Shown here in pieces: positions 7,721 to 56,660 of a DNA stretch of 64,000 nucleotides. A model generated the notes under the pieces. The model made no database searches. It was not told where the DNA came from and worked only from the letters and a program-made list of their open reading frames with translations. Position 1 is the stretch's first letter, and every line of letters begins with the position of its first letter. This DNA comes from a phage, in NCBI GenBank assembly GCA_026209155.1, contig GCA_026209155.1_3056.1; one strand, written 5' to 3'. Both the position numbers and the translations under genes were made by a program.

Positions 7721-7731
7721 ATCATCTCCAA

Positions 7732-8074: not shown

Positions 8075-8374
8075 TCAAACAGACTTTTTCACAATTTTCC
8101 AATCAGCTTTAAACTGTTCAACGTCAGAATGGTAAATCCAGAATCCTGCGCTTTCTCCATCCTCATAAAGAGGGCATCCATCACATTCATCTTCCCATCC
8201 CATATCACGCAAAAGACGTTCAGCTTTTTCAACAAGTTCAGAATCTTTACCAATAATATTAAAATACCATTTACCTCTAACTTCTGAATCTTTGATACTC
8301 TGACGTTGTAATCTCATTTTATTCTCCTTAGTTGATAAGGCTATAGTATCACTACCATAGCCTGTTGTAAACAA
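8075..8374 (-). CDS. Hypothetical protein (frd.x-like)
   Basis: 99-aa ORF. Confidence 0.5.
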   Translation of the reverse strand: MFTTGYGSDTIALSTKENKMRLQRQSIKDSEVRGKWYFNIIGKDSELVEKAERLLRDMGWEDECDGCPLYEDGESAGFWIYHSDVEQFKADWKIVKKSV

Positions 8375-8668
8375 TTATTTTTGAATTTTATCGAGCCACT
8401 TACCAAGCTTAATCATTTCTTTAGTAGCCTTTTCCATACTTCTGAACTTAACCAATAGAGGATAGGTATCGACACCCATAACTAAACTGGTTACAAGACT
8501 GTGTTCACCCACAAGCCATAACGAATACGTTTGAATATCGAGCCCGTAATTTCTGTCTTTGTGGACCCGTACACCCATCACTTCAAATTTCTCACTAGCT
8601 TTTTCTACCGCATCCAGGAAATCATCTTTAGTCATATTAGGCCTTAAAAGTTTTTCGCAAAAGTTCAA
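8375..8668 (-). CDS. Hypothetical protein (frd.x-like)
   Basis: 97-aa ORF abutting previous ORF. Confidence 0.5.
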   Translation of the reverse strand: MNFCEKLLRPNMTKDDFLDAVEKASEKFEVMGVRVHKDRNYGLDIQTYSLWLVGEHSLVTSLVMGVDTYPLLVKFRSMEKATKEMIKLGKWLDKIQK

Positions 8669-9061: not shown

Positions 9062-9292
9062 TTATTGTTCAATCAGTCCCATGTAAAATTCTGCGTCTTC
9101 AGAATCCATGCCATCACAATATTCATTAGCCATAAAGCGGGTGAGGTCTTCAAGAGGACCTTCAATGACAATAGAAAAATTGCAATAATTGGGATCATCG
9201 TGAATACTTGTGATGCTAAGTTCAGGATAACGATTACGAATAATTTCTTCGATATATTTAAAATCAACGATGTCAATATCAACTTTAGCCAT
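9062..9292 (-). CDS. Hypothetical small acidic protein, first gene after an early promoter
   Basis: 76-aa ORF directly downstream of promoter element at about 9325-9370. Confidence 0.5.
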
Positions 9293-9324
9293 ATTATTTT
9301 CCTCTTTAATTATCAGCAGTATTG

Positions 9325-9370
9325 CCGATAGTTGTATAGTACCATAGAATGCTTTGGTTGTAAACAGTTT
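9325..9370 (-). promoter_or_regulatory. T4-type early promoter (-35 GTTTAC, 17-nt spacer, -10 TATAGT-like) with conserved leader
   Basis: Minus-strand GTTTACAACCAAAGCATTCTATGGTACTATACAACTATCGG...; same block recurs at 26560, 30420, 56510. Confidence 0.5.
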
Positions 9371-9383
9371 TGTGAAAAATTTT

Positions 9384-9415
9384 TAAAATAAAAAAAGGGG
9401 ACCCTAGAGGTCCCC
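9384..9415 (-). terminator. Rho-independent terminator downstream of gene 32
   Basis: Minus-strand hairpin GGGGACC-ucuag-GGUCCCC followed by UUUUUUUAUUUU. Confidence 0.7.
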
Positions 9416-12280: not shown

Positions 12281-13198
12281 TCAAAATTCATTAATGCTAT
12301 TAGTTAATTTAGAAAGACCCGCTTTTACAAAATATGAATAAATTTTGCCACGCGGTGGTAATTTATATGAATTATAGTAATTCACAATGTTTGAAGCAAT
12401 ATTATCAGGAATATAATCAAAATCAATTAGAACTAAATTTTCTTTATATCGATTATATTCAGATTCAGTGAGAAGCACTTTAGCTTGCTCACGGTCATTA
12501 GCGATAGCTTCAACAATAGAGGTTTTCATTGAAGGAGTTCGTTCACCTTCAACTCTGGTAAACCAAAAGTCAGATCGTACTTTAACTGAAGCAACGTTAT
12601 CCTTTTTATCACCCTTAAGAATTTTAGTCATACAGTCAATTTCAGCAGAACCGCTTTTAATTTTAACCCATTTCTTATGCATCGGTGACCATTGCTTAAC
12701 ATTTGGATACTTGTGAAGTTGAGTAAAGTCACCATCCGATGAAATGATTAAAATCTTGTGTCCTTCTAAAGAGAACTTTTTAACAAGAACAGCGATATGG
12801 TCATCTGCTTCATACTTATCAATATCCATAACAGTGTATGGCATATAAGCTTTCAATTCATCTATAACTTTATGACTGGATTCAAAATAACCTTCCCAGT
12901 CCCAAGTAGATTCTTCTCGTGCTTTTCCGCGGTTTTTCTTGTAATAGTAAGCAAAATCACGACGCCAATATCCAGATTTCGCATTATCAATACACAGTAC
13001 AATTTTAGTGTATCCAAGAGTTTTTGCTTTTTTGACATTAAACTTAATTGAGTTCAATATCAAATGACGAACCATTGATAAATTAATTTTTTCTTTATCT
13101 GGGAAGTTTACTAGAGCAGTCGAAAGCGCAATTTGACTAAAGTCAATTAAGCAAATTCCTTCTTTATAATCTTCATCCAGCATCATTTCTAAATCCAT
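12281..13198 (-). CDS. rnh: RNase H / 5'-3' exonuclease, FEN-1 family (305 aa from Met MDLEMML with GAGG Shine-Dalgarno)
   Basis: FEN-like acidic motifs (CIDNAKSGYWRRD, ISSDGDFTQL); length equals T4 RNase H. Confidence 0.9.
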   Translation of the reverse strand: MDLEMMLDEDYKEGICLIDFSQIALSTALVNFPDKEKINLSMVRHLILNSIKFNVKKAKTLGYTKIVLCIDNAKSGYWRRDFAYYYKKNRGKAREESTWDWEGYFESSHKVIDELKAYMPYTVMDIDKYEADDHIAVLVKKFSLEGHKILIISSDGDFTQLHKYPNVKQWSPMHKKWVKIKSGSAEIDCMTKILKGDKKDNVASVKVRSDFWFTRVEGERTPSMKTSIVEAIANDREQAKVLLTESEYNRYKENLVLIDFDYIPDNIASNIVNYYNSYKLPPRGKIYSYFVKAGLSKLTNSINEF

Positions 13199-13260
13199 AT
13201 GAACCTCGTTCAATTAGTGAGATTTCTATTATATACCATCCAAATCTTAAAGTAAACAAG

Positions 13261-13268
13261 TATAAATA
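13261..13268 (+). promoter_or_regulatory. Late promoter TATAAATA upstream of gene 34
   Basis: Exact TATAAATA about 35 nt upstream of gene 34 ATG with AGGAG Shine-Dalgarno. Confidence 0.7.
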
Positions 13269-13302
13269 CTTATTATTGAAAACACAATAGGAGCCCGGGA
13301 GA

Positions 13303-22299: not shown

Positions 22300-22335
22300 C
22301 AACAAGGGGGAAATGCCCCCTTTGGAGTATAAATT

Positions 22336-23118
22336 ATGGCAGTAGTTGGAGTTCCTGGCTGGATTGGAAGTTCAGCCGTAAATGAAACGGGTCAGCGCTG
22401 GATGAGTCAAGCAGCTGGTCAATTAAGATTGGGTGTTCCTTGCTGGATGAGTCAATTTGCAGGTCGCTCAAGAGAAATAATTCACACGCTTGGAGCAGAC
22501 CATAACTTCAATGGCCAATGGTTCCGAGATAGATGTTTTGAGGCAGGTAGTACACCTATAGTGTTTAATATCACTGGAGATTTAGTATCATATTCTAAAG
22601 ATGTTCCTTTATTCTTCATGTACGGAGATACACCGAATGAATATGTTCAACTGAATATACATGGTGTAACGATTTTTGGCCGTGGCGGGAATGGCGGTAG
22701 CAATAGTCCTGGCTCAGCTGGGGGTCATTGTATTCAAAATGATATTGGTGGGAGACTAAGAATTAATAATGGTGGAGCTATTGCAGGCGGCGGTGGCGGC
22801 GGTGGAGGCGGATATTATTCTCCTTTTTCACAAATGAGATTGACCTTTGGCGGCGGCGGTGGGCGTCCGTTTGGTGCACCTGGCGGATCTATTGATATGC
22901 AATCAGGCGCGACTGGCGGTACTATTTCTGCACCTGGCTCAGGATCCGTGAATGGTATTTATAATGGTGGAAACGGTGGTGAAGTAGGTTCCGCGGGAGG
23001 TAGATGCAATATTCGCGGTCAAGGATCTGAATATAATGGCGGCGATGCTGGTTATGCTGTTATAGGGTCTGCTCCAACGTGGATAAATGTTGGAGCAATA
23101 TATGGTCCAAGAGTATAA
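22336..23118 (+). CDS. 38: Receptor-recognising adhesin gp38, long Gly-rich-motif type
   Basis: 260 aa with several poly-Gly motifs ([29 protein letters not shown]) between variable segments; immediately after gene 37. Confidence 0.85.
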
Positions 23119-23148
23119 TTTGAATAAATATCCTTAAAAGGAGGGTCT

Positions 23149-23805: not shown

Positions 23806-24078
23806 TTATTTGTTCGTATACATCTCTAGATATCGATATACACCCTCAAAACCCTCGTTGAATTCGTCGATGAGGGTTTTCTTATCTTCTTGAGTTAATT
23901 CAGAAACAATTTTACGGAATGAATTCTGATTTAATTTTCTACCTTCATGCGTTACTCCAATCTCATTCAGAAATGCAATAAAATTAGCACGATTTTCAAC
24001 AATATCTTCTCTGGAAAATTTAATTAAAATAGACGCAACAGTAATAATTTCACGAACTGTATCAATATTTTTATTCAT
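23806..24078 (-). CDS. asiA: Anti-sigma-70 factor AsiA
   Basis: 90 aa; sequence MNKNIDTVREIITVASILIKFSREDIVENRANF recognised as AsiA. Confidence 0.9.
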   Translation of the reverse strand: MNKNIDTVREIITVASILIKFSREDIVENRANFIAFLNEIGVTHEGRKLNQNSFRKIVSELTQEDKKTLIDEFNEGFEGVYRYLEMYTNK

Positions 24079-24090
24079 TAACTATACCAC

Positions 24091-24243
24091 TCAATTAGTT
24101 GACTTTGTTATAATATCATCAGACGCTTGATTTGTAAACTGGTCTGTGTTATTTTCTTCAAAAATTTTTTCTACGAATTCCTTGAACGACTCGCGTTCCT
24201 GAGCTACATTATGCTCGATTACCTTTTCAAGATTATGACTCAT
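24091..24243 (-). CDS. Small acidic hypothetical protein (50 aa), not in ORF track
   Basis: ATG overlaps arn stop (ATGA); hand-translated MSHNLEKVIEHNVAQERESF... Confidence 0.35.
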   Translation of the reverse strand: MSHNLEKVIEHNVAQERESFKEFVEKIFEENNTDQFTNQASDDIITKSTN

Positions 24244-25897: not shown

Positions 25898-26533
25898 TCA
25901 CAGTTCAGATGCTACGGTGATTACAGCTTCAATGTTTTCTGCTGAGCGTTTAATGTCAAGATACACATTACCGTTTTTAGCGATTTTACATGACATTCCG
26001 ATATCAATAAATTTCTGAATATGATGTTCCATCATTTTGTATCCAAAAATTCGCATATTTCCATTATTGTTAATTTCAAAATTGCGAATTCCGTGAGTGC
26101 GTTTTTCTAAAATGGCAAGATAATTACTACGATAAGTTTCAACCTTTTTAAGAACAAATCCATTTTCATCTAAAAGTTTTAGCATGTGGTCTTTATCTTC
26201 TTCCATATCGGAAGTAATCTCACGAGCTTTACGAGTTGCTCGTTTTTTCAGTAGTTCCGGAGCATTTTCTTGCGCGTATAAAGTTGCTGCATTTGAAATA
26301 ATATCCTGAGCTTCACCAGTAATGATTAATCCATCACCAGATTTCTCCACCAGGCCTTTTTTAATCAATACCCCAATATTACTATTAACTACTGCGTTAC
26401 CTAAATCTGGATGCACCTCACGAACTTCTGCAGCTGTAATGAAATCTTTCTTAGCAATAGTAATTAAAATCGCAGCAGTTTTTTCATTCAGAACATCGTT
26501 AGAAGCTTTGATGATGTAAGTTACTTTAGACAT
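25898..26533 (-). CDS. motA: Middle-transcription activator MotA
   Basis: 211 aa as in T4 MotA; N-terminus MSKVTYIIKASNDVLNEKTAAILITIAKKDFITAAEVREVHPDLGN. Confidence 0.9.
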   Translation of the reverse strand: MSKVTYIIKASNDVLNEKTAAILITIAKKDFITAAEVREVHPDLGNAVVNSNIGVLIKKGLVEKSGDGLIITGEAQDIISNAATLYAQENAPELLKKRATRKAREITSDMEEDKDHMLKLLDENGFVLKKVETYRSNYLAILEKRTHGIRNFEINNNGNMRIFGYKMMEHHIQKFIDIGMSCKIAKNGNVYLDIKRSAENIEAVITVASEL

Positions 26534-26559
26534 TTTCTAATCTCCGTAATTCTGTATCA

Positions 26560-26605
26560 GTAGTTGATAGTTGTATAGTACCACAGTATGCTTTGGTTGT
26601 AAACC
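26560..26605 (-). promoter_or_regulatory. T4-type early promoter for motA
   Basis: Minus-strand GGTTTAC-17 nt-TACTATAC, conserved leader, Shine-Dalgarno GGAG then motA ATG. Confidence 0.55.
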
Positions 26606-26623
26606 GTTTTGTGAAAAAATTTT

Positions 26624-26655
26624 TGAAATAAAAAAGGGAGAGCCTCGGCTCTCCC
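26624..26655 (-). terminator. Rho-independent terminator downstream of gene 52 / small ORF
   Basis: Minus-strand GGGAGAGCC-GAG-GCUCUCCC followed by UUUUUUAUUU. Confidence 0.65.
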
Positions 26656-26660
26656 TAAAA

Positions 26661-26810
26661 TTACTGCATGACTGTGATAACTGTCATGATAACACGTTGA
26701 ATTCCGAACGCAAGAAGACCTCCTGCTACGGCTGGAACAACGCCTAAACCCGCTAGTAAAATGCCGCCAGATACTAATGCTGCGCTTGTAATACCTATAA
26801 ATGGACTCAT
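26661..26810 (-). CDS. Small hydrophobic Gly-rich membrane peptide (49 aa), not in ORF track
   Basis: ATG overlaps gene 52 stop (ATGA); hand-translated MSPFIGITSAALVSGGILLAGLGVVPAVAGGLLAFGIQRVIMTVITVMQ. Confidence 0.45.
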   Translation of the reverse strand: MSPFIGITSAALVSGGILLAGLGVVPAVAGGLLAFGIQRVIMTVITVMQ

Positions 26811-29580: not shown

Positions 29581-29680
29581 AGTAAGCGTTTAATACATCA
29601 ATCATTAAAACGATTGGGAATATACTCAAAACTACTAGTATTATAACTACATTCCATATAGCTTTAACAATCTTTTTCAT
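29567..29680 (-). CDS. Small membrane peptide (37 aa); track ORF 29567..29815 trimmed to the internal Met after the promoter
   Basis: MKKIVKAIWNVVIILVVLSIFPIVLMIDVLNAYFGFM; upstream part of track ORF is read-through of promoter DNA. Confidence 0.45.
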   Translation of the reverse strand: MKKIVKAIWNVVIILVVLSIFPIVLMIDVLNAYFGFM

Positions 29681-29923
29681 TTTCTGTTCCTCCGTAGTTG
29701 ATAGGGTAATAATACCACAGAGGAACAGTCTTGTAAACAACTTTTTTAAAAATATTCGTAATAAATGTGAATGCCAATCACTACTGCCGAAACTTGCGCA
29801 ACCCACCATGCACAAGCAATAAGTACAGAATTCAAAATTTTCATAATAACCTCATCACAAAAGTAAATGTTAAACAAATTAATGGAATACTAATTAACCA
29901 AATAAAACACCACCATAATGAAC

Positions 29924-30196
29924 TCATAGTTCAATCTCAGCGATTTTCATTTCATTACTATTAATAGCCGCTTTAAGACTATCTGAAAGAATTACATCCC
30001 AGTGGTCATTCATATGACCATTAACTAAACGTGTAATTTCTTCGGGAGTTGAAAAATAAGGCGTATCAGACTCCCAATGCGATAGTCCCAAGCGAGTATA
30101 AATCATACCTTCATCATCGCTAGAATATTCAACTGACACAAACTCATCAGTTATTTTATGTTTAGCGTAATAAAATTTAAATTTCATTTTACTCAA
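29924..30196 (-). CDS. Hypothetical protein
   Basis: 90-aa ORF. Confidence 0.5.
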   Translation of the reverse strand: MSKMKFKFYYAKHKITDEFVSVEYSSDDEGMIYTRLGLSHWESDTPYFSTPEEITRLVNGHMNDHWDVILSDSLKAAINSNEMKIAEIEL

Positions 30197-30399
30197 TAAT
30201 CCGCTAAAAGATCGACGATTGCATCACGAAGACACTTATTCGCAATACGTTTAAGAGCAATTTCAGTTTCTGGAGCATTTTGAATAATCATTGAATTCAA
30301 TTCAGCCTCAGCAAACTGAAGTTCTTTAACTAATTCAGCTTTATATTTTCCTTGCCCTTTCTTAGCTTTTGCTCGTTTTAATTCAGCTGTAGTAAACAT
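30193..30399 (-). CDS. Hypothetical protein (68 aa); track ORF 30193..30498 trimmed to the Met after the promoter
   Basis: MFTTAELKRAKAKKGQGKYKAELVKELQFAEAELNS...; upstream codons lie within the promoter element. Confidence 0.5.
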   Translation of the reverse strand: MFTTAELKRAKAKKGQGKYKAELVKELQFAEAELNSMIIQNAPETEIALKRIANKCLRDAIVDLLADY

Positions 30400-30419
30400 T
30401 TTATTCTCCAAATCCGTAT

Positions 30420-30465
30420 CAGTTGATAGTTGTATAGTACCACAGTCCTTGTGGTATGTAAACCA
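30420..30465 (-). promoter_or_regulatory. T4-type early promoter immediately downstream of denB
   Basis: Minus-strand GTTTAC-17 nt-GTACTATAC with conserved leader CTATCAACTGATAC. Confidence 0.5.
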
Positions 30466-30479
30466 CTTTGTGAAAATTT

Positions 30480-31037
30480 TTAAATGGAAAGATACCATCC
30501 GTTGTAGTTGCTTTTTCTTACAACCTTACGAAGGTCTTCTCTATCACCGATGAACTTCGGAGTGTACTGGATGACACCTGGATGAATTTCTTTAGTGTTG
30601 AATATAATTATACAGTCAGCGACTTGGTGATTCAGAATGGGCCCTAGATTTATTCCAGAACCGTATGGATACTCTCCGCTGCATCCGGTTGTTACCGAAA
30701 TCCAACGTGAGTCAGTTTGATGTGTTTTGACTTCTACACGAAGCCCGCAGTATTTTGGATGCGCCAGTACATCCCATGCATATGTATACGGGTCATTAAC
30801 ATCCTCTTGGCCTTTGTTAACATACCCGCTCAGCCAATCTGCTACAAAAAATTCTGCGTACACAGCGATACGACATCTTTCAATAACTTCTGCTTTATCC
30901 TGATTAGGATTTTGTTTTAAAGAGTATCTTGCTGTATCAGCAATTTTGACCTTCATTTCACTAGTCAAGTCACTGTTCGATAGGGTAAATGTCGGAATCT
31001 GAAATAGTCTCTGTAAACCTGGATTCGTTTTCTGCAT
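30480..31037 (-). CDS. denB: Endonuclease IV (cytosine-DNA-specific)
   Basis: 185 aa as in T4 DenB; between rIIB and ndd. Confidence 0.88.
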   Translation of the reverse strand: MQKTNPGLQRLFQIPTFTLSNSDLTSEMKVKIADTARYSLKQNPNQDKAEVIERCRIAVYAEFFVADWLSGYVNKGQEDVNDPYTYAWDVLAHPKYCGLRVEVKTHQTDSRWISVTTGCSGEYPYGSGINLGPILNHQVADCIIIFNTKEIHPGVIQYTPKFIGDREDLRKVVRKSNYNGWYLSI

Positions 31038-34484: not shown

Positions 34485-34688
34485 TTAATTCATATTGCGT
34501 TTAATAACTTCAACAACTTCTAGTAGTTCATCTTTAGTTGCGGTGTCGGATTGAATTTTATCTCTAATATCCTTAAAGCGGTTTTTAAACTCTTCAGCTT
34601 CTCCCATATCGAAAAAGCGTTGAATGATTCTATATTCTCGATGAACTGCTTTATCAAAAAGTTCTAAATTTACTTTATATGATTTCAT
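34485..34688 (-). CDS. Hypothetical small protein (rIIA.1-like)
   Basis: 67-aa ORF downstream of a canonical early promoter. Confidence 0.5.
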
Positions 34689-34711
34689 TTCAATATCCTC
34701 ATTTGCCCAAT

Positions 34712-34745
34712 TAATTATACCACATCCTTGTGGTAAAGTAAACTA
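34712..34745 (-). promoter_or_regulatory. T4-type early promoter (-35 GTTTAC, 17 nt, -10 GTATAAT) overlapping the gene 39 stop
   Basis: Minus-strand GTTTACTTTACCACAAGGATGTGGTATAAT. Confidence 0.55.
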
Positions 34746-36563
34746 TTGGCTCATCCATTCTTTACGAAGGTCAGCATTATCTCCCATGAGCATTTCAAAA
34801 AGCTCTTTCCAGTTCTCAGGAAGTTTAACAACATCATATACTGGGTTTTGAATCATCTCACGATATTCAGATTTTTCCAAAGAGCCAAGTCCTTTAATAT
34901 AACGGATGCTATGTTTAGGTAGAGCATCTTTGGCACTCTCATATTCAGCGACTGTATAAAACCATTCTTGTTTTTTACCGACCTGAGCGATGATTACAGG
35001 AGTTTTGACAAAGCGAATTCTTCCTTGTTCAAACAATTCTGGCCAATTACTAAAAAATCCGAGCAGAGAAGGATAAATGCTTCCTAGACCATCATGGTCA
35101 GCATCAGTCATAATAGCAATATTATGATAATTCAAGTTTTCAGCCTTTTCACCAAGAACTAATCCAGTGATTGCACAAATATCGAACAGTTCTTTGTTTT
35201 TAAGCATATCAGCATATGACATGCCCCAACTGTTAAGAACTTTACCACGCAATGGATAACCACCATGAAGTTCTTTATCACGAACATCAATAAGATATCC
35301 GATAGCAGAATCACCCTCAGTCAAGAAAAGAGTAGTATCAGCATCTTTACCGCAAAGATTCGCTTTGATATGTTTATGAACCTTAGCTTTAGAAGCCTTT
35401 TTAGCTGCTTTAGTTTCTGCTGCTTTTTCTGCCGCCAATTTACGAGCCAAAGCAGCTTCAATAATCGGCATTAGAATTGCTTCATTATTTAGAATAGCGC
35501 GTGAAATCTTTTTAGCATCAAGCTGAATATGACTACGAATTTCGCCAAATGGAGAAGTCAAACGCTCTTTAGTTTGAGAATCAAATCGCATGTTTTTCAT
35601 ATCACGAACAAACATAACGATAGTCAAACATTCTTTAACACGTGCTTTAGTTACATCAATTTTGAACTTACGTTTGATTTGTGGAATAAGGTCTTCACAA
35701 ATATCATCCATAACGCAGTCAATGTGATGGCCACCATTCTTAGTATGAATGTTATTGACGTATGTTAATTGACGAAAACCATCCGGTGAACGACCAACCG
35801 CAATAGAACAATTTTCTTGTTCTTGAACAATAGCATGTTCATCATATTGGCGTGCATATTTCTTAAAATTACCCTGAACCTTTTTACCATTAAAGGTAAA
35901 TTGAATATCAGGATAAACTACTGCAAGTGTCTGGAGACGATCTAGCGTAATGTCAAGATAAACTTGAGATAGTTCATTAGTTTCAAATGACATAAAATCA
36001 GGAATGAAAGTAACACGAGTTCCTTTCCATTTTCCAGGAATAGTTTCCCATGATTTATTTTCCATGCCATTTGAACAACGAACTACAATATTATTTTGAC
36101 CATCGCCAGTTTCACCGACAAACATCACAGAAAAAATGTTAGTTAAACTAGAGCCAACACCGTTCATACCGCCAGTGACGCGTTCTTTATCATCACCAAA
36201 GTTACCACCTGCTTTTGGAATAGTCCAGGCAGCAACAGGACCAGGAATTTCTTCACCAGTAGGTGTTTTAACCATCGCTTGTGGAATACCACGACCGTTA
36301 TCTTCAACTGTTACTTGATTGTTTTTGATAGTAACATTAATTTTATTTGCGAATTTAAACTTAGTACGAATACCTTCATCTACTGAGTTATCGATAATTT
36401 CATCAATAAGCTTAACAAGACCAGGTACATACTGAACACTTTCCCATTTACCAAACAGAAAGCGCTCATGCATTTCATTAGCGGAAGAGCCAATGTACAT
36501 GCCGCTACGCTTTTTGATATGTTCAATATCGCTCAGAATTTTAATTTCATTCTTAATCATCAC
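34743..36563 (-). CDS. 39: DNA topoisomerase II large subunit gp39, uninterrupted (GyrB-like ATPase plus Toprim region that is gene 60 in T4)
   Basis: 606-aa continuous ORF; C-terminal IAIMTDADHDGLGSIYPSLLGFFSNWPELFEQGRIRF segment is contiguous. Confidence 0.9.
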   Translation of the reverse strand: MMIKNEIKILSDIEHIKKRSGMYIGSSANEMHERFLFGKWESVQYVPGLVKLIDEIIDNSVDEGIRTKFKFANKINVTIKNNQVTVEDNGRGIPQAMVKTPTGEEIPGPVAAWTIPKAGGNFGDDKERVTGGMNGVGSSLTNIFSVMFVGETGDGQNNIVVRCSNGMENKSWETIPGKWKGTRVTFIPDFMSFETNELSQVYLDITLDRLQTLAVVYPDIQFTFNGKKVQGNFKKYARQYDEHAIVQEQENCSIAVGRSPDGFRQLTYVNNIHTKNGGHHIDCVMDDICEDLIPQIKRKFKIDVTKARVKECLTIVMFVRDMKNMRFDSQTKERLTSPFGEIRSHIQLDAKKISRAILNNEAILMPIIEAALARKLAAEKAAETKAAKKASKAKVHKHIKANLCGKDADTTLFLTEGDSAIGYLIDVRDKELHGGYPLRGKVLNSWGMSYADMLKNKELFDICAITGLVLGEKAENLNYHNIAIMTDADHDGLGSIYPSLLGFFSNWPELFEQGRIRFVKTPVIIAQVGKKQEWFYTVAEYESAKDALPKHSIRYIKGLGSLEKSEYREMIQNPVYDVVKLPENWKELFEMLMGDNADLRKEWMSQ

Positions 36564-38082: not shown

Positions 38083-38175
38083 TACAATTTCCTCATTAAT
38101 TGAACAGTGGAGCGATGCGTTTCAGAAGAGTAGCAGCACCTTTGGCAAATTTTCCATTTTATTCTCCAAGTTGTT

Positions 38176-38222
38176 TTCTGTATCAGTAGTTGATATTGAT
38201 ATAATACCATAATCAACTACTG
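38176..38222. repeat. Perfect 13-bp inverted repeat (ATCAGTAGTTGAT / ATCAACTACTGAT) around a 17-nt AT-rich spacer, inside an early-promoter-like region
   Basis: Read directly; the left arm is the conserved early leader block, the right arm is its exact reverse complement. Confidence 0.6.
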
Positions 38223-38253
38223 ATGTATATAGTTTTATGAAAAAATTTAAACT

Positions 38254-38751
38254 TTATGCACAGCGGGCTTTGCTATAGTGTTTAATCCAACTTTCGGGAA
38301 TGACTTTGTATGTTCCTAAAAATACCGCGTTGTACAACTTAACGCCATCTTCTACCCATTGATCGGTAATGTATGCACACATAGCACGAGTACGGTGTTT
38401 TTGAACAACCCCTTCCTCATCTTCAGTAAATTCGAATTCATAAGGAGCAATGAACTTAATAGCCTGACCGAGTTTCCACTTAAAGTCTACACCTACATGC
38501 GAAGTATCAATCGTTTCAATTCCTTTAGCAGGAACAGCTTTCAAAAACGCAGATTCAAGAAATTTCGCACGAACATAGCCAAACTGAGGTTTAGACTTTC
38601 CATCTTTAGGAATGATACGCACTTTTACTTCAGAATCTTCATCTTTAACGCCATGTTTAAGCTGAATGCTTACAATTTCGACCAATTTTCCTGCTGCTTT
38701 AGAACGGGATTTATCAGATACACGAGCAATTTCACCAATATTAATAATCAT
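38254..38751 (-). CDS. Hypothetical protein, paralog A of tandem pair (possibly MotB-like)
   Basis: 165 aa; C-terminal motif AYITDQWVEDGVKLYNAVFLGTYKVIPESW shared with next ORF. Confidence 0.55.
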   Translation of the reverse strand: MIINIGEIARVSDKSRSKAAGKLVEIVSIQLKHGVKDEDSEVKVRIIPKDGKSKPQFGYVRAKFLESAFLKAVPAKGIETIDTSHVGVDFKWKLGQAIKFIAPYEFEFTEDEEGVVQKHRTRAMCAYITDQWVEDGVKLYNAVFLGTYKVIPESWIKHYSKARCA

Positions 38752-38827
38752 AGTTATCTCTCACTTGTTAAAAAGATTTTATACTCCACAGGACCATTAT
38801 ACTCTGGTCCCAAGAGTTTGTAAACTA

Positions 38828-39370
38828 TTAATTCAAAATAGCTACCACCGCACTACGAGGTACTACACTAAAATCACCTGCATGAACAACGTTCAGAAGT
38901 TCAACACCATCTTCAATCCACTGGTCTGTTACCCAACCGCAGACTGAAATAAATGGAGTCTTGATAGCTACCGCACGAGTTAGAAGGTCTGTAGGGTCTT
39001 GTTCTTCAACTTCTTGGAACAGGATGAACTCTGCTTCATAAACCAGGATTTTCTCTATTTTGTTATTGTCTAAACGACGACCGTGTACAATATAAGATTT
39101 AGTAAACCATTTACTTTTTTCAAAGTCTTCAACAGTAAATTCGCCTTCGCCAAAAACATCAGTCAGAGTTTTATGGCCGGAAATCAAGGCATTAGTTTTA
39201 ATTTCAGGTTCAACCAGTTTGTAGGTTTTGCCGATTTCAATAGCGGTAGTCATAGTAGGTTCCTTAATTTCCAGTGGTTTAACAGGGCATACATAAGTGC
39301 TTACAACATCAAAATCAATCAGTTTAGCTACCGGATTTGGTATGTATTCAGGATTATAATTAAATTTCAT
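38828..39370 (-). CDS. Hypothetical protein, paralog B of tandem pair
   Basis: 180 aa; C-terminal motif GWVTDQWIEDGVELLNVVHAGDFSVVPRS. Confidence 0.55.
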   Translation of the reverse strand: MKFNYNPEYIPNPVAKLIDFDVVSTYVCPVKPLEIKEPTMTTAIEIGKTYKLVEPEIKTNALISGHKTLTDVFGEGEFTVEDFEKSKWFTKSYIVHGRRLDNNKIEKILVYEAEFILFQEVEEQDPTDLLTRAVAIKTPFISVCGWVTDQWIEDGVELLNVVHAGDFSVVPRSAVVAILN

Positions 39371-39372
39371 AA

Positions 39373-39912
39373 TTATCTCATTTCAATAAAATCTATGAGT
39401 TCAGCATGCGATTTGCGGAACATTACTTGGTGCCCGCCAATGATAACTTCATCTTCAGGAACTTCGTATACAGCGAGATAAAATCCTTTAGAAGATAATT
39501 CTTCCCGCTCTTCTCGTGTGAACCATCTCATCATATCATATTCACTAGCGAAAGCAAAATGATAAAGAGCTATAAACCATCCTGGAATATGATATTCTAC
39601 TCCAACATAATCTTTCTTGAACTTAGTATTAATTACTATATTAGCGTTTTTAACTAATAGTTTATCTTCGTGTGGTAAAGGAATTCTTTTATTATTATCG
39701 CTATGATGCATAAAATTAGGTCTGTCATAACCTACGTGTAATAGCCACTCTTCGCTCCATGAATCTATTATACTCCTGTACGGCGTTATTTGAACACAAA
39801 GATTTCGACGTATTGTTATAGCATCTTCATAATCAAGAATACTAAACGATGATTCAACACGATAAATTTTCATTTTATTATCCTCAGTAGCTATGGTGTT
39901 ATAATACCACAA
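39373..39912 (-). CDS. Hypothetical protein
   Basis: 179-aa ORF immediately downstream of early promoter after dexA. Confidence 0.5.
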   Translation of the reverse strand: MWYYNTIATEDNKMKIYRVESSFSILDYEDAITIRRNLCVQITPYRSIIDSWSEEWLLHVGYDRPNFMHHSDNNKRIPLPHEDKLLVKNANIVINTKFKKDYVGVEYHIPGWFIALYHFAFASEYDMMRWFTREEREELSSKGFYLAVYEVPEDEVIIGGHQVMFRKSHAELIDFIEMR

Positions 39913-39932
39913 CTAACCGAGGAAGTAAACAA
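39895..39932 (-). promoter_or_regulatory. T4-type early promoter (-35 GTTTAC, 17 nt, -10 GTATTATAA)
   Basis: Minus-strand GTTTACTTCCTCGGTTAGTTGTGGTATTATAA. Confidence 0.55.
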
Positions 39933-39936
39933 CTTT

Positions 39937-40620
39937 TTATCGTTTTGTTGGAAGAGAAAGAGGATCGCACTCTTCTTCTGACGGAGCATCTTCAAGACCC
40001 ATAGCATATCGCAAAGCATACTTCATCATCAGGATGTCTTTCGCACAGTCATGAATAGAATCATGTGCAACGAATCCATCTAAAGTTCCCTTTGGAAGAG
40101 GACACGTGGTCATATCACGAACAAGGAGAAGTGCTTCAATTCTGGTACGAATATCACGCTGATTCCAGAATTTACACGGTTCTAACTTAAATGTGTCAAG
40201 TTCATTCTCAGAAACGCCATTAAGACGTTGAATATCGCGAATGAGATCGACTAAAATTGGAAAATCAAACGACATTCCACGGCACCAGCCTTGAGATTTC
40301 CAAGGATCGATGTTATGTGCATTGATGTAATCATTAAATTTTGCAATACCATCGATAGTGCTTACATCTTCATCTGATGGTGCAATATTTTTTCGAGCTT
40401 CGGGAGACTGATTTTTCCACCATTCGATAGTGCTTTTAGTAAAAAGACGATGTCCTTTTTGGCTTTTTAAATCAAATTTGATTTTAATGCCGCGCGAAAC
40501 TAATTCATCAAATGATTCAACTACTTCTGGATTAGGGTCAAAGGCAATAACAGCCAAATCAATAACAGCTGCCTTTTCACCGCTTCCCATTGTTTCAAAA
40601 TCTATAATAAAATCAAACAT
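39937..40620 (-). CDS. dexA: Exonuclease A (DEDDh 3'-5' exonuclease)
   Basis: 227 aa as in T4 DexA; N-terminal FIIDFETMG exo motif. Confidence 0.88.
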   Translation of the reverse strand: MFDFIIDFETMGSGEKAAVIDLAVIAFDPNPEVVESFDELVSRGIKIKFDLKSQKGHRLFTKSTIEWWKNQSPEARKNIAPSDEDVSTIDGIAKFNDYINAHNIDPWKSQGWCRGMSFDFPILVDLIRDIQRLNGVSENELDTFKLEPCKFWNQRDIRTRIEALLLVRDMTTCPLPKGTLDGFVAHDSIHDCAKDILMMKYALRYAMGLEDAPSEEECDPLSLPTKR

Positions 40621-42750: not shown

Positions 42751-43497
42751 TTATCCTCGGATAAGTTTAAAAATTGAACAATTTAGCGGGTATCCTCTTT
42801 TCAGTTTAAGTTTATCAATAAAAGACAAGTTTTGATACCGCTCTACACCTTGAATAATTTTATCACACATATCATATTGCATTTCTGCTTCTGACAACTT
42901 TTTCACAGTTTTCCAATCCGAGCCTTTAAGAAGAACGTTCAATTTAACAACTTCAGCGCCTTCTGCTATACGAGAACCATCAATACGAGCTTTAAGTGCT
43001 ATAATCGTTAGCTTAACGTCAGAGGTTTGTTTTGATTTAGAAAGCTGAGAAATGTGCTCAATTCGGTTTTCGCGTTTTTTCTGTATAGCTTTAATTTGAT
43101 TATAAGTCTTTTTGATTTTAGCCCATTTCTTTTCATCTAAATTTAGTTTATGAACTTTTTTCGCAGATGAACGACCAATTCGCAAAGCAAATAAATCACG
43201 CTTTTCAATCAACTCTTCTAAAGTATAATCAGAACGAAATGTATTATACTTTTTCTTTACTGCAATAACATTCCCTTTAATGTATCCAACGTTATTATCA
43301 AAACGTTCTAATGATAATTTCTCTCCTTCAATACGATTATCAAAAGGTTCTCCCGAGTAAGCGCAAACTTTCTGATCTAAAATGTTCTTAATGTAATTGA
43401 AGTCTAAGTTAAAATCTTTAGAACGTCTTTTAGCTGATGCCTGAGTATGCTCTAGACGACGTGTAATTTTACGAATTTGATTTTTAGACAGTTTCAT
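42751..43497 (-). CDS. srd: Srd-like protein (putative sigma-factor-related early protein)
   Basis: 248-aa basic ORF at the srd position between modA and dda; assignment by position and length only. Confidence 0.55.
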   Translation of the reverse strand: MKLSKNQIRKITRRLEHTQASAKRRSKDFNLDFNYIKNILDQKVCAYSGEPFDNRIEGEKLSLERFDNNVGYIKGNVIAVKKKYNTFRSDYTLEELIEKRDLFALRIGRSSAKKVHKLNLDEKKWAKIKKTYNQIKAIQKKRENRIEHISQLSKSKQTSDVKLTIIALKARIDGSRIAEGAEVVKLNVLLKGSDWKTVKKLSEAEMQYDMCDKIIQGVERYQNLSFIDKLKLKRGYPLNCSIFKLIRG

Positions 43498-43612
43498 ATT
43501 TTTCTCACGGACGATTAACTACTTATACTATATCATTTTTACTTCAGCTTGTAAACAACTTTATGAAAAATGCTTTAAAACTTTCATGGTATAATGAATC
43601 TAAGTCCTTCCA

Positions 43613-44215: not shown

Positions 44216-44847
44216 TCAACTACCTCAATATCATAAACTTTAAATGTTCCAAATGAATTGTGTAATTTTTCTTTTGAAATAGAAGTTATTTTATACTTTC
44301 CAATTGGAATCATCCATTCTTGTTCACGCACAATCATCATTAAGTTATCAGTACGCTCTGAATCTAGCCCATCAGTATCTTCATATGTGTACTTAAACTC
44401 AGTATTAGGAGAAGAAAGTATAATATCGCTGATATGGTCAGAATAATTAAAAGCTTTATCAGTTTTTAAGCGAAATATTATTTCAGTGAAATACTCAAAA
44501 TAAGAAAAACCACATGCTGTGTGCAAACTAGTAGTAAATGAATCTACTCTGTTCGTTGAAAACACTTCTCCAACTTGTAAATCTTTAATGAGTTCTTTTG
44601 TCGATTTTGATATACCACGATATAGCTGATAAGGCGATTTAGTTAAATGTTTTTTAACGATTTTATTCAACTGCTGATGAAGAGCTTCATTCTTTTTGGC
44701 TTCCATACATTGCCAAAGAACTGACTGTTCAAAGTCAGTAAATTTTTCACAGACCTTTTTATACATATCATATTGAAAATCAACGCTTTCAGCTTTTATA
44801 GATAACTGTTCAACATCTACAAGATTAATAATCATGATAGCCTCCAT
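44212..44847 (-). CDS. modB: ADP-ribosyltransferase ModB
   Basis: 211 aa; tandem paralog of ModA with LYRGIS ... EQEWMIPIG. Confidence 0.8.
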   Translation of the reverse strand: MEAIMIINLVDVEQLSIKAESVDFQYDMYKKVCEKFTDFEQSVLWQCMEAKKNEALHQQLNKIVKKHLTKSPYQLYRGISKSTKELIKDLQVGEVFSTNRVDSFTTSLHTACGFSYFEYFTEIIFRLKTDKAFNYSDHISDIILSSPNTEFKYTYEDTDGLDSERTDNLMMIVREQEWMIPIGKYKITSISKEKLHNSFGTFKVYDIEVVE

Positions 44848-44902
44848 ATACTTCAGAAGCTATCATATCATTGTTAGGAAGGAAAGTAAACAACTTTTTG
44901 AA

Positions 44903-45085
44903 TTATTTTGCCCAGGGAGCCCAGGGCGGAGGGTCAAGATGGTATGAAGCTAGTTCTTCTAAAAGAGCATCTGGGGCTTCAATTCCATAATTCTGTAATA
45001 CTATACGGTACTCTTTCTTATAATCACTAGAATCATTCTGGATATTCGTAGAATGATTATCTTCTAACATCTCAAATAAATCCAT
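44903..45085 (-). CDS. Hypothetical small acidic protein
   Basis: 60-aa ORF. Confidence 0.45.
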   Translation of the reverse strand: MDLFEMLEDNHSTNIQNDSSDYKKEYRIVLQNYGIEAPDALLEELASYHLDPPPWAPWAK

Positions 45086-46731: not shown

Positions 46732-46937
46732 TACAAAAAGCCTCTCTTGAATTCAACTTGCTTCTCACCATAATCATATCGAATCTCTGCGTTAAATTCG
46801 ACAGAACCATCTGCGTACATCATAAATGAATGCACAACAACTTCTGTAGACCATGGCTGTAGTTCATATTTCTTCATTACATGCCGTGAAATGATAATAT
46901 CTAAATCTTCATTTGGTTTAATCCAACGATTTAACAT
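46731..46937 (-). CDS. Hypothetical small protein
   Basis: 68-aa ORF. Confidence 0.45.
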   Translation of the reverse strand: MLNRWIKPNEDLDIIISRHVMKKYELQPWSTEVVVHSFMMYADGSVEFNAEIRYDYGEKQVEFKRGFL

Positions 46938-46994
46938 AGTGCTCTCCTCTATAAGATAATTTTATTATACCATACTCATTTTGGAAAGTAAACC

Positions 46995-47028
46995 AGTAAA
47001 ATAAAAAAGGACTCCCGAAGGAGTCCTT
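46995..47028 (-). terminator. Rho-independent terminator downstream of soc
   Basis: Minus-strand AAGGACUCC-UUCG-GGAGUCCUU followed by UUUUUUAUUUU. Confidence 0.7.
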
Positions 47029-49975: not shown

Positions 49976-50268
49976 TATTCACCTACCACTTCAGCGATGA
50001 TATTTTTGTTATTAAAGTTTTTATCGCAATACAGAACATAATTATACTGCATTACACCACCAGACTTAAGTTGTTTTTGCACTTCAGCTTTCATTTCAGG
50101 ACGATCGCGCTCAACGATATTCATAATATCCGCTTCAATTTGAGTTTCAACTTCAGTCTGATCCGCAGTCATAGACCATTCGCACAAATCTTTATCATAA
50201 CCTGCCATAGCAGGCTGAGCAGCACAAGAAGCTAAAGCAAAAATTGCGGCAAAGATAAATTTTTTCAT
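49975..50268 (-). CDS. sp: Spackle periplasmic protein (superinfection exclusion)
   Basis: 97 aa with N-terminal signal peptide MKKFIFAAIFALASCAAQPAMA; position matches T4 sp (61.3). Confidence 0.8.
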   Translation of the reverse strand: MKKFIFAAIFALASCAAQPAMAGYDKDLCEWSMTADQTEVETQIEADIMNIVERDRPEMKAEVQKQLKSGGVMQYNYVLYCDKNFNNKNIIAEVVGE

Positions 50269-50295
50269 GATAATCTCCTCAGTAGTTTATGTTTA

Positions 50296-50328
50296 TATAG
50301 TATCTCAATTTCCAACAAAAGTAAACAG
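50296..50328 (-). promoter_or_regulatory. T4-type early promoter upstream of sp
   Basis: Minus-strand GTTTAC-17 nt-TACTATATAA. Confidence 0.5.
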
Positions 50329-50628
50329 TTATTTTAAAACTTCTGCGTAATCACATGTTACAAACTGTTTCTCTAGCTTGACGATTTTACGAAAGTATCT
50401 TTTACATTGACGAATCTGTCGCTTAGTAGGGCGCACAGCAAACTTAATAAATTCCACTCGACCAAATGGAGGGCTTTCTTCTGATGGAATATCTAACACC
50501 AATTCCCACGTATCTGCAATAAGTGCTTTGAATTGAGTATTTTTCCTAACGTTATACGGAGTAGGTTTAAATAAAACAATATGCATATTATCCTCGGCAA
50601 TCCACTTCACATACTTTCTTGTCATCAA
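50329..50628 (-). CDS. Hypothetical protein (61.4-like)
   Basis: 99-aa basic ORF directly downstream of dmd. Confidence 0.5.
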   Translation of the reverse strand: MMTRKYVKWIAEDNMHIVLFKPTPYNVRKNTQFKALIADTWELVLDIPSEESPPFGRVEFIKFAVRPTKRQIRQCKRYFRKIVKLEKQFVTCDYAEVLK

Positions 50629-50770
50629 TGAAAGCTTTAACTAATGCTTTATTAACTTCAGCATACTGAGTAGTAGCCCATTGAACGTCATCTTTCATCA
50701 TTGTGGTTTCTTTAGTAAACATGCTTTCATTCTTAAACCACCCCATAAAAACTACCTTTACCAATTCCAT
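50588..50770 (-). CDS. dmd: Dmd antitoxin (blocks host RnlA/LsoA RNase toxins)
   Basis: 60 aa, same length as T4 Dmd; first gene after gene 41. Confidence 0.75.
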   Translation of the reverse strand: MELVKVVFMGWFKNESMFTKETTMMKDDVQWATTQYAEVNKALVKAFIDDKKVCEVDCRG

Positions 50771-50797
50771 AACAATCTCCTCATTTAACCAACAAGA

Positions 50798-50830
50798 CTA
50801 CTATACCATAGTCTCGTCAGCTTGTAAACT
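50798..50830 (-). promoter_or_regulatory. T4-type early promoter for dmd, abutting the gene 41 stop
   Basis: Minus-strand GTTTAC-18 nt-GTATAGTAG. Confidence 0.5.
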
Positions 50831-52256
50831 AAAATTTTAATTCATTCGCCAAAGCATCTAACTGAGCTCGAGTGGATTCATTTCTTTGATAGCGATTCTG
50901 CTCAGCCTGAATCTGTTGTGAACCTGCTACTTCGTTCACTTCAGTTGGAGTAGAATCTTGTTCAATTTCTACCCATTTCTGATTTCCCTTTTGAACACCC
51001 ATCAAAAACTTATTCCACTTATTCTTATCGCCATATCGTGATTTGATTTGCTTAATGAGTTGTTGTTCAGCAGCTGCTAGCTCCTCGGTTTCAATGACCG
51101 CAAGCATAAAATCAGCTGTTGCTGGAAGACCGGCAGATTCTGCGATATCACTCATGTTAACATCAGAAGAATCCCAAGCTTGTTTACCAACCTGTGCTGC
51201 AGTCCAAAGAACAGTTTCGGTTTCAACAGCCAGAGCACGCAATTCCTCTGCAATAGCTTTAACAGTTGTGTAACTATTTTCTGAATAAACTCTAATGCGG
51301 CAAGATTTACAAATACCTAGATAGTCGACAATAATGATTGTTGGAACAAAATTCTTCTTGAGCTTCAATTCGTTTAAAAGTGATCGAAATGTATTAGCAT
51401 CTGCTCCACCGGTAGGATACTGTTTAACGATTAAACGACCGAGAGTAGATTTCTCACGCCATTTTTCCATTTTTCCTTTATACTCAGCGTAAGAAATATG
51501 CCCATCATCAATGTCATCAAGAGAAACATCAAGCATATTAGCATCAATACGCTTAGCACAGACTTCTTCTGCCATTTCCATGGAAATGTAAAGAACGTTA
51601 TGACCAAGCTGCAAATAATCTGCTGCCAATGAACACAATCCTAATGACTTACCAACGTTAACGCCAGCCATTAAAACGTTCAGTGTTCCAGTCTCAGCTC
51701 CGCCTTTAGTAATTTTGTTTAGAATTCTGAGTTTAAATGGAACCTTACGAGCTTTATTCATATAAGATAGCCAACGTGCTTCGTAGTCATCCATCCAGTC
51801 ATGACCAACGTAGCTATCAAATGAAATTGATAATGCTTGCCGCATGATGTCAGGAATAGCACCAACATCCGGCATTTTCTTATTTCGTTTTTCCGGAGGA
51901 AGCTCAGCATTAGTTTGAATTTCGATTATTTTAGACGTAGCATTAAACATCGCCCTTTGCTGAACATATTTTTCTGTTTCTTTTACTAACCAGCTGTGGT
52001 CTTCCGGAGAATCAGCCAGTTTTGAAATAAGTGTTTTTACACCAGAATATTCTGTTTCAGTAAATGAACTATTTTCTAATGCAACATTTAACGCATTAAT
52101 AGATGGAACGCTATGATACTCATTAACATGAGATTTAATTAATTTGAATGTATTTTTAGCTGGACCACTTTCAAAATATTCTGAATCCATATATGGCCAA
52201 ACTTTTGAAAAATAAGCTTGATCAAATATGAGATGAGAAAGAATAATTTCTACCAC
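50829..52256 (-). CDS. 41: Replicative DNA helicase gp41 (DnaB-like)
   Basis: 475 aa as in T4 gp41; Walker A GVNVGKS. Confidence 0.93.
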   Translation of the reverse strand: MVEIILSHLIFDQAYFSKVWPYMDSEYFESGPAKNTFKLIKSHVNEYHSVPSINALNVALENSSFTETEYSGVKTLISKLADSPEDHSWLVKETEKYVQQRAMFNATSKIIEIQTNAELPPEKRNKKMPDVGAIPDIMRQALSISFDSYVGHDWMDDYEARWLSYMNKARKVPFKLRILNKITKGGAETGTLNVLMAGVNVGKSLGLCSLAADYLQLGHNVLYISMEMAEEVCAKRIDANMLDVSLDDIDDGHISYAEYKGKMEKWREKSTLGRLIVKQYPTGGADANTFRSLLNELKLKKNFVPTIIIVDYLGICKSCRIRVYSENSYTTVKAIAEELRALAVETETVLWTAAQVGKQAWDSSDVNMSDIAESAGLPATADFMLAVIETEELAAAEQQLIKQIKSRYGDKNKWNKFLMGVQKGNQKWVEIEQDSTPTEVNEVAGSQQIQAEQNRYQRNESTRAQLDALANELKF

Positions 52257-56250: not shown

Positions 56251-56487
56251 TCAAATGCAAGTAGTAATTACTCCAGTAGTGCTTATGCAGGTATTACCCA
56301 TTTGCACACCTAAAGATCCATTTGTATTCACATGAAGATTATCATCAATTTTAACTGATATTTTACCATTAGTGTGAATAACAGTGCTAGATTCAATCAC
56401 AGGTTGAGTATCATTTTCAACACTAACAAATGGAACTGCTGTTAATGCAACTAAACAAACTGCTAAGCATCCCATAACAATTTTCAT
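56251..56487 (-). CDS. Small secreted protein (78 aa); track ORF 56251..56601 trimmed to the Met after the promoter
   Basis: MKIVMGCLAVCLVALTAVPFVSVEND signal-peptide-like N-terminus; upstream codons are promoter read-through. Confidence 0.5.
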   Translation of the reverse strand: MKIVMGCLAVCLVALTAVPFVSVENDTQPVIESSTVIHTNGKISVKIDDNLHVNTNGSLGVQMGNTCISTTGVITTCI

Positions 56488-56509
56488 TTTATTCTCCAAA
56501 TCTGTATCA

Positions 56510-56556
56510 GTAGTTGATAGTTGTATAGTACCATGGAAGAACAGTCTTGTAAACAG
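56510..56556 (-). promoter_or_regulatory. T4-type early promoter downstream of gene 43
   Basis: Minus-strand GTTTAC-17 nt-GTACTATAC with conserved leader. Confidence 0.5.
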
Positions 56557-56631
56557 TTTTGTGAAAAAATTTTTTAATGAATCCAAAAGGTCCAGAATCA
56601 TCTGTTTTTCACAAGTATAGATTTATATTAC

Positions 56632-56660
56632 TTGTATGAAAAAGGGACCCGGAGGTCCCT
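56632..56660 (-). terminator. Rho-independent terminator downstream of gene 43
   Basis: Minus-strand AGGGACC-UCCG-GGUCCCU followed by UUUUUC. Confidence 0.65.

Follow-up and report, generated by a model that had tools for sequence, protein, structure and literature searches.

Recurring T4-type early promoter cassettes as probable PeSL-type exchange patches in a Tequatrovirus genome

The early promoters of T4 (PE) were reportedly reviewed by Miller et al. in 2003. They are composed of UP, -35, TGn and -10 elements together with additional consensus regions (Hinton, 2010; PMC2988021). Promoter early stem-loops (PeSLs) have been defined in RB49/phi1, where promoter and terminator activity as well as mini-circles, the latter by inverse PCR, were shown experimentally (Arbiol et al., 2010; PMC2839356), and have later been described in nt-1/KVP40 and in PST/T4, in the latter pair with the consensus TTTACW-N17-TAYWAT and with the exchange of an ORF at ndd (Comeau et al., 2014; PMC4122927). 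The cassettes analyzed here belong to this already published element family (PeSL, 2010; T4/PST, 2014). A sequence-only reading of the same DNA had already drawn the comparison with PeSLs, correctly so, as the sites match the TTTACW-N17-TAYWAT of the T4/PST elements (PMC4122927), which is a proper recognition and not a new finding. The cassettes resemble PeSLs in combining an AT-rich tract, an early promoter, a stem-loop and SD/ATG, and in their association with small non-essential ORFs and nearby indels. Whereas mini-circles and promoter or terminator activity are results obtained with RB49/phi1, the cassettes here are known from sequence.

The window, i.e., the whole stretch of 64,000 nt analyzed, is collinear with T4 from nrdB (T4 ~137.4 kb) via rIIB/rIIA to gene 46 (~33.7 kb) in the strand orientation of the T4 record, and is, as judged from this alignment, part of a Tequatrovirus genome. 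Identity to T4 in the cassette regions amounts to about 95–97%, and many Tequatrovirus genomes match the focal neighbourhood with 96–97% identity. The focal site is flanked upstream on the minus strand by motA.1/gene 52 (26661-28135) and is followed by the 211-aa motA ORF (25898..26533), collinear with T4 motA at 162967..163602. Copies of the cassette are named in the following by the start coordinate of their -35 element, the focal one being 26603.

All parts of the focal cassette can be assigned on the minus strand. Directly after the motA.1 stop codon, an intrinsic terminator of motA.1/gene 52 is predicted at 26635..26656 (AGGGAGAGC-cgag-GCTCTCCCT, 9 pairs with 6 GC, followed by a T-run), the RNA of which folds at -17.6 kcal/mol (z = -4.2) and which lies 32 nt upstream of the -35 element. 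Continuous with the T-run is an A/T-rich UP-like tract, TTTTTATTTCAAAAATTTTTTCACAAAACGG (26604..26634), 80% identical to the tracts of copies 9364 and 56553. The -35 hexamer TTTACA (26598..26603), extended by a preceding G to GTTTAC, is supported by consensus, position weight matrix (PWM) and alignment, and a 17-bp spacer separates it from an extended -10 element consisting of TGG and TACTAT (26575..26583), the columns of which are invariant in the alignment. The complete promoter reads GTTTACA-N14-GTGG-TACTAT. While the minus-strand anatomy described earlier, with UP-like tract, -35 GTTTAC, -10, conserved leader and sometimes an upstream terminator, is correct, the -10 element had been given as TACTATAC and has to be replaced by the hexamer TACTAT preceded by TGn. 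Initial transcribed region and leader, ACAACTATCAACTACTGATACAGAATTACGGAGATTAGAAA, extend over 26534..26574 with a predicted transcription start at about 26568, and the leader proceeds via ACAACTATCAACTACTGATACAGAATTAC, a GGAG Shine-Dalgarno sequence (26542-26545) and ATTAGAAA to the motA ATG. In line with this assignment, the orthologous site in GenBank record OL960580 is labelled as rho-independent terminator and as promoter similar to the T4 early sequence GTTTAC(N14)gtggTAttaT; the T4 records NC_000866 and AF158101 do not carry promoter features. From these signals, the focal copy is the predicted motA early promoter placed behind the gene 52/motA.1 terminator.

This cassette is one of many in the window. 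The 18-mer GATAGTTGTATAGTACCA is found on the plus strand in four exact copies, at 9327, 26566, 30425 and 56516, compared to 0.03 expected, so the block described as common to four sites is indeed present at each of them. For the -35/UP part TGTAAACNNTTTTGTGAAAAA, seven matches with at most three mismatches were obtained versus 0.09 expected. Repeat grouping resulted in families of 73–76 nt with 63–89% identity. The PST/T4 PeSL consensus TTTACW-N16-18-TAYWAT gives 14 matches in the window, exclusively on the minus strand, of which 13 were used for training a PWM (the match at 36788 with an 18-bp spacer was excluded). Scanning the window with this PWM revealed 17 sites on the minus and none on the plus strand, with 0.03 in random sequence. 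Among them are all seven divergent copies noted before (29695, 34712, 39895, 43524, 44865, 50296 and 50798) and six copies not listed previously, with -35 starts at 8371, 13256, 24138, 38229, 38824 and 46992. The features of a T4-type early promoter, i.e., -35, 17-bp spacer, TGn and TAYWAT, are present in 14 copies by the strict consensus and in 17 by the PWM. All 17 copies are located 50–75 nt upstream of a minus-strand ATG, and GGAG/GAGG followed by ATG occurs in 17 of 17. In an alignment of ten copies, the UP tract, the -35 element, TGn/-10 and the first 10–12 transcribed bases are invariant, while the spacer is variable; the UP tract AAAAATTTTTTCACAAAAC is conserved in the core copies, and UP segments are 60–80% identical among many copies. 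T4, T2 and five further relatives also possess strand-exclusive cassettes of this family (eight genomes including the window). When used as query, the focal 130 nt matched 542 phage records at 3,395 places, corresponding to 6–7 per genome.

By collinearity with T4, these minus-strand copies precede motA, asiA, frd.1, frd.3, rnh, ndd.4, rIIA.1, cef, motB, motB.2, srd, modB, mrh.2, sp and dmd. The frd.3 cassette (9290..9415), mapping to T4 at about 146.8 kb between gene 32 and frd.3, comprises the gene 32 terminator (9397-9415), an UP tract, TTTACA (9359-9364), TACTAT (9336-9341) and an ATG at 9292. Downstream of gene 43, the cassette at 56485..56660 has a terminator (56643-56660), an UP tract, TTTACA (56548-56553), TACTAT (56525-56530), an exact RegB site (56487-56497) and an ATG at 56487, and would drive a 78-aa ORF not present in T4 and then imm.1. 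A second, AT-rich inverted repeat, ACAAGTA-10 nt-TACTTGT (56609-56638), is situated between its terminator and promoter. In the cassette at the denB 3' end (30397..30492; TTTACA 30457-30462, TACTAT 30434-30439), the spacer is filled by a 7-bp inverted repeat, the RegB site at 30399-30409 is exact, and the ATG is at 30399. This cassette would drive 68-aa and 90-aa ORFs, both without T4 counterpart. Further elements are TATACA-N17-TATTAT of the cef cassette (38155..38259, with a 13-bp inverted repeat and an exact RegB site at 38157-38167), TTTACA-N17-TACTAT of frd.1 (8315..8401, with a 7-bp inverted repeat straddling the -10 element and an exact RegB site at 8317-8327), TTTACA-N17-TATTAT of ndd.4 (29678..29767, its spacer being 82% identical to that of copy 56553) and of asiA (24076..24168, inside the asiA.1 3' end), TTTACT-N17-TATAAT of rnh (13196..13286) and of rIIA.1 (34686..34772, with a 7-bp inverted repeat in the spacer), TTTACA-N17-TATAAT of motB (38749..38854, with a 6-bp inverted repeat across the -10 element), TTTACT-N17-TATTAT of motB.2 (39871..39959), TTTACA-N17-TATAGT of srd (43495..43585) and of dmd (50768..50858), TTTACT-N17-TATGAT of modB (44833..44920, with an inverted repeat from -10 to ATG), TTTACT-N17-TATAAT of mrh.2 (46935..47028, with the soc terminator at 47007-47028 folding at -15.1 kcal/mol, z = -4.5) and TTTACT-N17-TACTAT of sp (50266..50355). 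In the cef cassette (38180-38226), the 17-bp spacer is the reverse complement of the leader motif, and ATCAGTAGTTGAT-17 nt-ATCAACTACTGAT forms a perfect 13-bp repeat enclosing the -10 element.

Compared with the T4 early promoters, these elements show the same UP tract, GTTTAC, 17-bp spacer with TGn, TAYWAT and additional conserved positions in the same orientation and at orthologous positions, without any essential difference; T4 itself, however, lacks the extra ORFs which this phage has behind promoters 30462 and 56553. The repeats are thus almost certainly, as far as motifs and orthology can tell, T4-type early promoters and terminators. Differences from the described PeSLs concern the stem-loops. 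A strong intrinsic terminator on the minus strand directly upstream of the promoter is found in only 4 of the 17 copies, 9364 (gene 32), 26603, 46992 (soc) and 56553 (gene 43), folding at -13.9 to -17.6 kcal/mol and being followed by U-runs. Hence, the statement that the repeats are often preceded by a GC-rich hairpin terminator applies to these four, but not to the others including 30462, which is without terminator because its UP tract overlaps the denB end. Nine further copies, all different from the terminator-bearing ones, merely possess an inverted repeat of 6–13 bp within the promoter, and four of 17 have neither structure. The excess of these repeats over chance is modest: perfect inverted repeats of at least 6 bp occur in the 60-nt core of 9 of 17 copies versus about 25% expected (p ~0.01) and those of at least 7 bp in 5 of 17 versus about 7% expected (p ~0.004–0.015 across both tests). 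They either fill the spacer (30462, 34742) or straddle the -10 element (8371, 13256, 38229, 38824, 50828 and others), and the same positional stem-loop subclasses have been described for PeSLs (Arbiol et al., 2010; PMC2839356). At the focal site, the terminator stem-loop is adjacent to the promoter, as is characteristic of PeSLs.

Taken together, the reading favoured here, with a probability of roughly 0.8, is that the repeats are sigma-70 early promoter cassettes which would also serve as exchange patches of the PeSL type. UP tract, GTTTAC, 17-bp spacer with TGn and TAYWAT would recruit the unmodified host RNA polymerase immediately after infection. An unstructured initial transcribed region would then lead to the GGAG Shine-Dalgarno sequence and the ATG, and in four copies a RegB/S1 site might later inactivate the early mRNA. 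In four copies, including the focal one, the upstream terminator would insulate the new transcription unit from read-through, so that the focal copy may end the gene 52/motA.1 transcript and start that of motA. The same stretch of about 100 bp recurs at least 6–7 times per genome, always pointing in the same direction and located among small genes that are not essential, and cassettes arranged in this way could therefore provide homology patches for insertion, deletion and exchange of ORFs. Recombination at the cassettes would swap ORFs with expression left undisturbed, which is the published PeSL shuffling model. Considered separately, this action in recombination and ORF shuffling is probable, as suggested by the comparison of related genomes outlined below. 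While sequence anatomy, strand bias, orthology to the T4 regions upstream of early genes, terminator stability, edge enrichment and junction sequences are direct observations, we infer promoter and terminator activity, RegB cleavage and, behind the association with indels, recombination rather than selection alone.

For assessing the association with indels, the window was compared by alignment with 70 kb of T4 and with T2, SYGD1, vB_SsoM_113, PYps15T, FelixPlatter and Aplg8, the latter six over about 49 kb each. With the late tail-fibre block left out of the count, 63 unique break edges remained, of which 13 are located in cassette intervals (from ATG-10 to -35+50, together 3.9% of the sequence), equivalent to an about 5-fold enrichment (binomial p = 8e-7). 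Breaks associated with cassettes affect either the UP tract or the part extending from the -10 element into the first codons, but not -35/spacer, and agree with the crossover zones of the RB49/phi1 PeSLs (AT-rich tract; -10 to ATG). Relative to gene starts, an edge within 125 nt upstream was found for 10 of 17 cassette-bearing versus 25 of 85 other starts (odds ratio 3.4, one-sided p = 0.022), a modestly significant result of a comparison which is based on 102 crudely called minus-strand starts and in which the edges are not fully independent. About 80% of the edges are outside cassettes, and 7 of the 17 cassettes are without a nearby break in the seven comparisons. Accordingly, the association is moderate: the proposed coincidence of cassette boundaries with indels stands as an enrichment against seven relatives, but most breaks are elsewhere, and at the focal site no indel was found versus T4 itself.

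These figures leave some room for the cassettes being purely regulatory, with a passive link to indels. Their similarity would then be due to selection, and promoters would simply head dispensable blocks in the longest non-coding gaps. This agrees with the predominance of edges elsewhere, many of which are tied to homing endonucleases, introns, dam and adhesin genes (nrdB intron, mobE, the gene 60/mobA region, segF, segG, segD, dam, the glucosyltransferase region and genes 37/38), with the drop from an about 5-fold enrichment per nucleotide to the odds ratio of 3.4 (p = 0.02) against the gene-start null and with the most conserved columns being the functional ones (UP, -35, TGn, -10, start region, SD). 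Junction microhomologies are also short (3–14 nt), as given by ordinary illegitimate recombination as well. The structure of individual junctions and copies, on the other hand, speaks against a merely passive association.

At the focal site, Sso113 and PYps15T possess a 75-aa ORF between two promoter-leader cassettes having a 23-nt direct repeat, CTATCAAATAAATGAACTGAAAC, in common, and the break maps to 26561-26583 of the window, i.e., to the -10/leader part. Among the genomes compared, the leader variant with the 23-nt repeat occurs only in these two phages and only as that pair. Sso113 lacks 1,086 bp of the window (38845-39932), the two ends of which occupy equivalent positions in two cassettes, namely in the UP tracts just 5' of the -35 elements of 38824 and 39929. 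By tblastn, the 75-aa ORF was found in 168 phage records, with homologues in other genera at 57–71% identity. In Gelderlandvirus Melville and Jiaodavirus Metamorpho, the homologue is placed in different neighbourhoods, with no motA/gene 52 within 2.5 kb. The Metamorpho homologue is likewise flanked by two cassettes of the same type, the upstream one being GTTTACA-N17-TACTAT ... GGAGAATAAATG and the downstream one TATACA-N17-TATTAT ... ATCAAAACTACTGA ... GGAGAATAAAATG, so that this ORF family is found between cassettes at another locus in another genus. An ORF located between two elements, as required for PeSLs, is consequently present in Sso113/PYps15T, in the window at 38845-39932 and in Metamorpho. 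Relative to T4, the extra 78-aa ORF behind the imm.1 promoter (56241-56473) has its junction in ATGAAAAT, and 440 bp behind promoter 30462 (29957-30396) are missing from T4, with the junction at AATAAAATG/AATGAAATG. A duplication of whole promoter-plus-ORF units behind the 30462 and 56553 leaders was considered, too, but the encoded proteins are unrelated. Further break edges are at 8331 and 8385 in the frd.1 cassette, in SYGD1, 329 bp are inserted at a distance of 11 nt upstream from the -35 element of the sp cassette, and the ndd region is variable in this window, too.

The copies themselves appear to be mosaics. In copy 56553, the UP tract is nearest to 26603/9364 (80%), the spacer to 29737 (82%), and the leader is identical to that of 26603, whereas 9364 and 26603 share the spacer (88%), but not the leader. 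Spacer identities of 82–88% in certain pairs contrast with random 17-mers, which reach 65% only at the 99.9th percentile, and the spacer pairings differ from the leader pairings. To our knowledge, the spacer sequence has no recognition role. Since spacers are alike nevertheless, the pattern indicates, at the level of aligned segments, common ancestry and recombination between copies and not convergence alone. With these mosaics, the ORFs flanked by cassettes at two loci and the matching ends of the 1,086-bp difference, a purely regulatory role with passive indel association is considered rather unlikely.

If exchange between cassettes does take place, it might be envisaged as a dedicated process. 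PeSLs have been likened to integron gene cassettes and phage 'morons' (Arbiol et al., 2010; PMC2839356), and in both cases, like here, small ORFs are bounded by repeats which bring or preserve their own expression signals. Integron cassettes, unlike the ones in the window, depend on an integrase, a structured site of the attC type and a fixed crossover, while the repeats here are promoters. In the most far-reaching version, the block from -10 to ATG would be an integron-like docking sequence, possibly bound by a phage factor, and ORFs would be excised as circles and re-inserted at other copies, from Tequatrovirus to Jiaodavirus, with gene conversion preserving the similarity of the paralogous copies, an idea which, judged by the sequences compared, seems improbable. 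Alternatively, the cassettes could be attachment sites of a phage-encoded, integron-like site-specific recombination system, as ORFs between two cassettes of the same orientation indeed resemble gene cassettes and a specific DNA-binding protein acting on the stem-loop has been suggested (Arbiol et al., 2010; PMC2839356). However, breaks are scattered over UP tract, -10/leader and SD/ATG without a fixed crossover, a recombinase candidate was not found beside the cassettes, and the Pfam search of the cargo ORFs did not reveal any family. Moreover, T4-type recombination needs only short homology of less than 50 bp (Arbiol et al., 2010; PMC2839356). A dedicated site-specific system is, due to the scattered crossover points, highly improbable.

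The leader downstream of the -10 element deserves separate consideration, as the 24-nt block following it is identical or nearly so in several copies, beyond what a promoter apparently needs. The first 24 nt after the focal -10 element are identical to those of copy 56553, and ATCAACTACTGATAC is found exactly at three sites. The near-identical 30-bp leader claimed by the sequence-only reading is present in full in 26603, 56553 and 38229 and, with a 3-nt deletion, in 30462, but 9364 diverges after ACAACTATC. RegB/S1 endoribonuclease targets in T4 early mRNAs are reportedly the subject of work by Durand et al. in 2006. The strong RegB/S1 cleavage consensus is GG*AGRAYARAA (Uzan and Miller, 2010; PMC3014915), and exactly this sequence is given by the shared 3' part of the leader, GGAGAATAAAA, which is placed as Shine-Dalgarno sequence. 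In the window, GGAGRAYARAA occurs four times versus 0.46 expected, each time in a cassette leader (8371, 30462, 38229 and 56553). As with the T4 targets, the exact site coincides with the SD in an unstructured RNA in these four; the RegB-type site of the focal motA leader, GGAGATTAGAA, differs from GGAGRAYARAA by one mismatch, and the site is predicted here from sequence. Considering the leader instead as a structured cis-regulatory RNA or a small RNA gene, and not as part of the promoter, would account for the conservation of the 24-nt block. However, leader RNAs do not fold (MFE of 0 to -0.6 kcal/mol, z = +0.4 to +0.9; focal leader -0.6 kcal/mol, z = +0.4), the Rfam search of the window did not match any family, and the block runs straight into SD and ATG, leaving a structured RNA hardly credible. 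From the missing fold, the missing Rfam match and the exact RegB consensus, the conserved leader is therefore best read as a T4 early initial transcribed region plus an exposed SD probably doubling as putative RegB target.

Finally, the repeats could be thought of as chance similarity in AT-rich intergenic DNA, where generic promoter-like hexamer pairs indeed occur at chance level (81 versus 77, 78 versus 80 and 94 versus 86 expected in a generic sigma-70 scan), but this is refuted by the four exact 18-mers, the 17:0 strand bias of the PWM sites and the 3,395 places in phage records, and its probability is negligible. Because a generic sigma-70 scan is uninformative in such an AT-rich genome, the promoter assignment relies on the extended T4-specific consensus and on orthology.

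With the element family already described, the additions made here are a controlled figure for how indels track cassettes, albeit a moderate one, and a clear polymorphism of the motA cassette, at which the mini-circle model could conveniently be tested in T-even phages. The cassettes would explain how host RNA polymerase is seized within the first minute and how the shut-off of early messages follows later. They might also be a plausible route by which T-even phages gain and lose small genes for host takeover and anti-defence with regulation kept intact.

Besides the cassette-linked differences, the window deviates from T4 at several other places. Missing are the nrdB group I intron with I-TevIII, nrdB.1 and mobE (1054-1786), while the td region including the intron is collinear with T4 (1786-6483; a group I intron was not reported by Rfam at the gathering threshold). 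Insertions are found between td and frd (6483-6886), encoding a 119-aa ORF without Pfam family, and between frd and frd.1 (7494-8008), encoding an 81-aa ORF and a 110-aa ORF matching DUF7247 (E = 1.5e-42). The 3' part of gene 37 and gene 38 are replaced (19214-23124), differing among all relatives compared, which is the known adhesin swap and unrelated to the cassettes. At 35078-35143, the T4 gene 60/60.1/mobA segment including the 50-nt translational bypass region is missing, and the topoisomerase large subunit is encoded by one uninterrupted gene, as annotated in T2 and other relatives. Between gene 45 and rpbA (62077-62964, minus strand), 875 bp are inserted, encoding a 295-aa ORF with a GIY-YIG-like N-terminus (VYLISF...YYIGS) and repeated K-I-S-x-S-x-K-x-x-W motifs. 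On account of these features, the product is probably a homing endonuclease of the seg type; the only Pfam match, to DUF7132, was below the threshold. At 47318-47944 and 53778-54725, segF and dam are missing and about 950 bp take the place of the segment with segA and beta-glucosyltransferase, and at the position of the latter segment a beta-glucosyl-HMC-alpha-glucosyltransferase is annotated in T2-like relatives.
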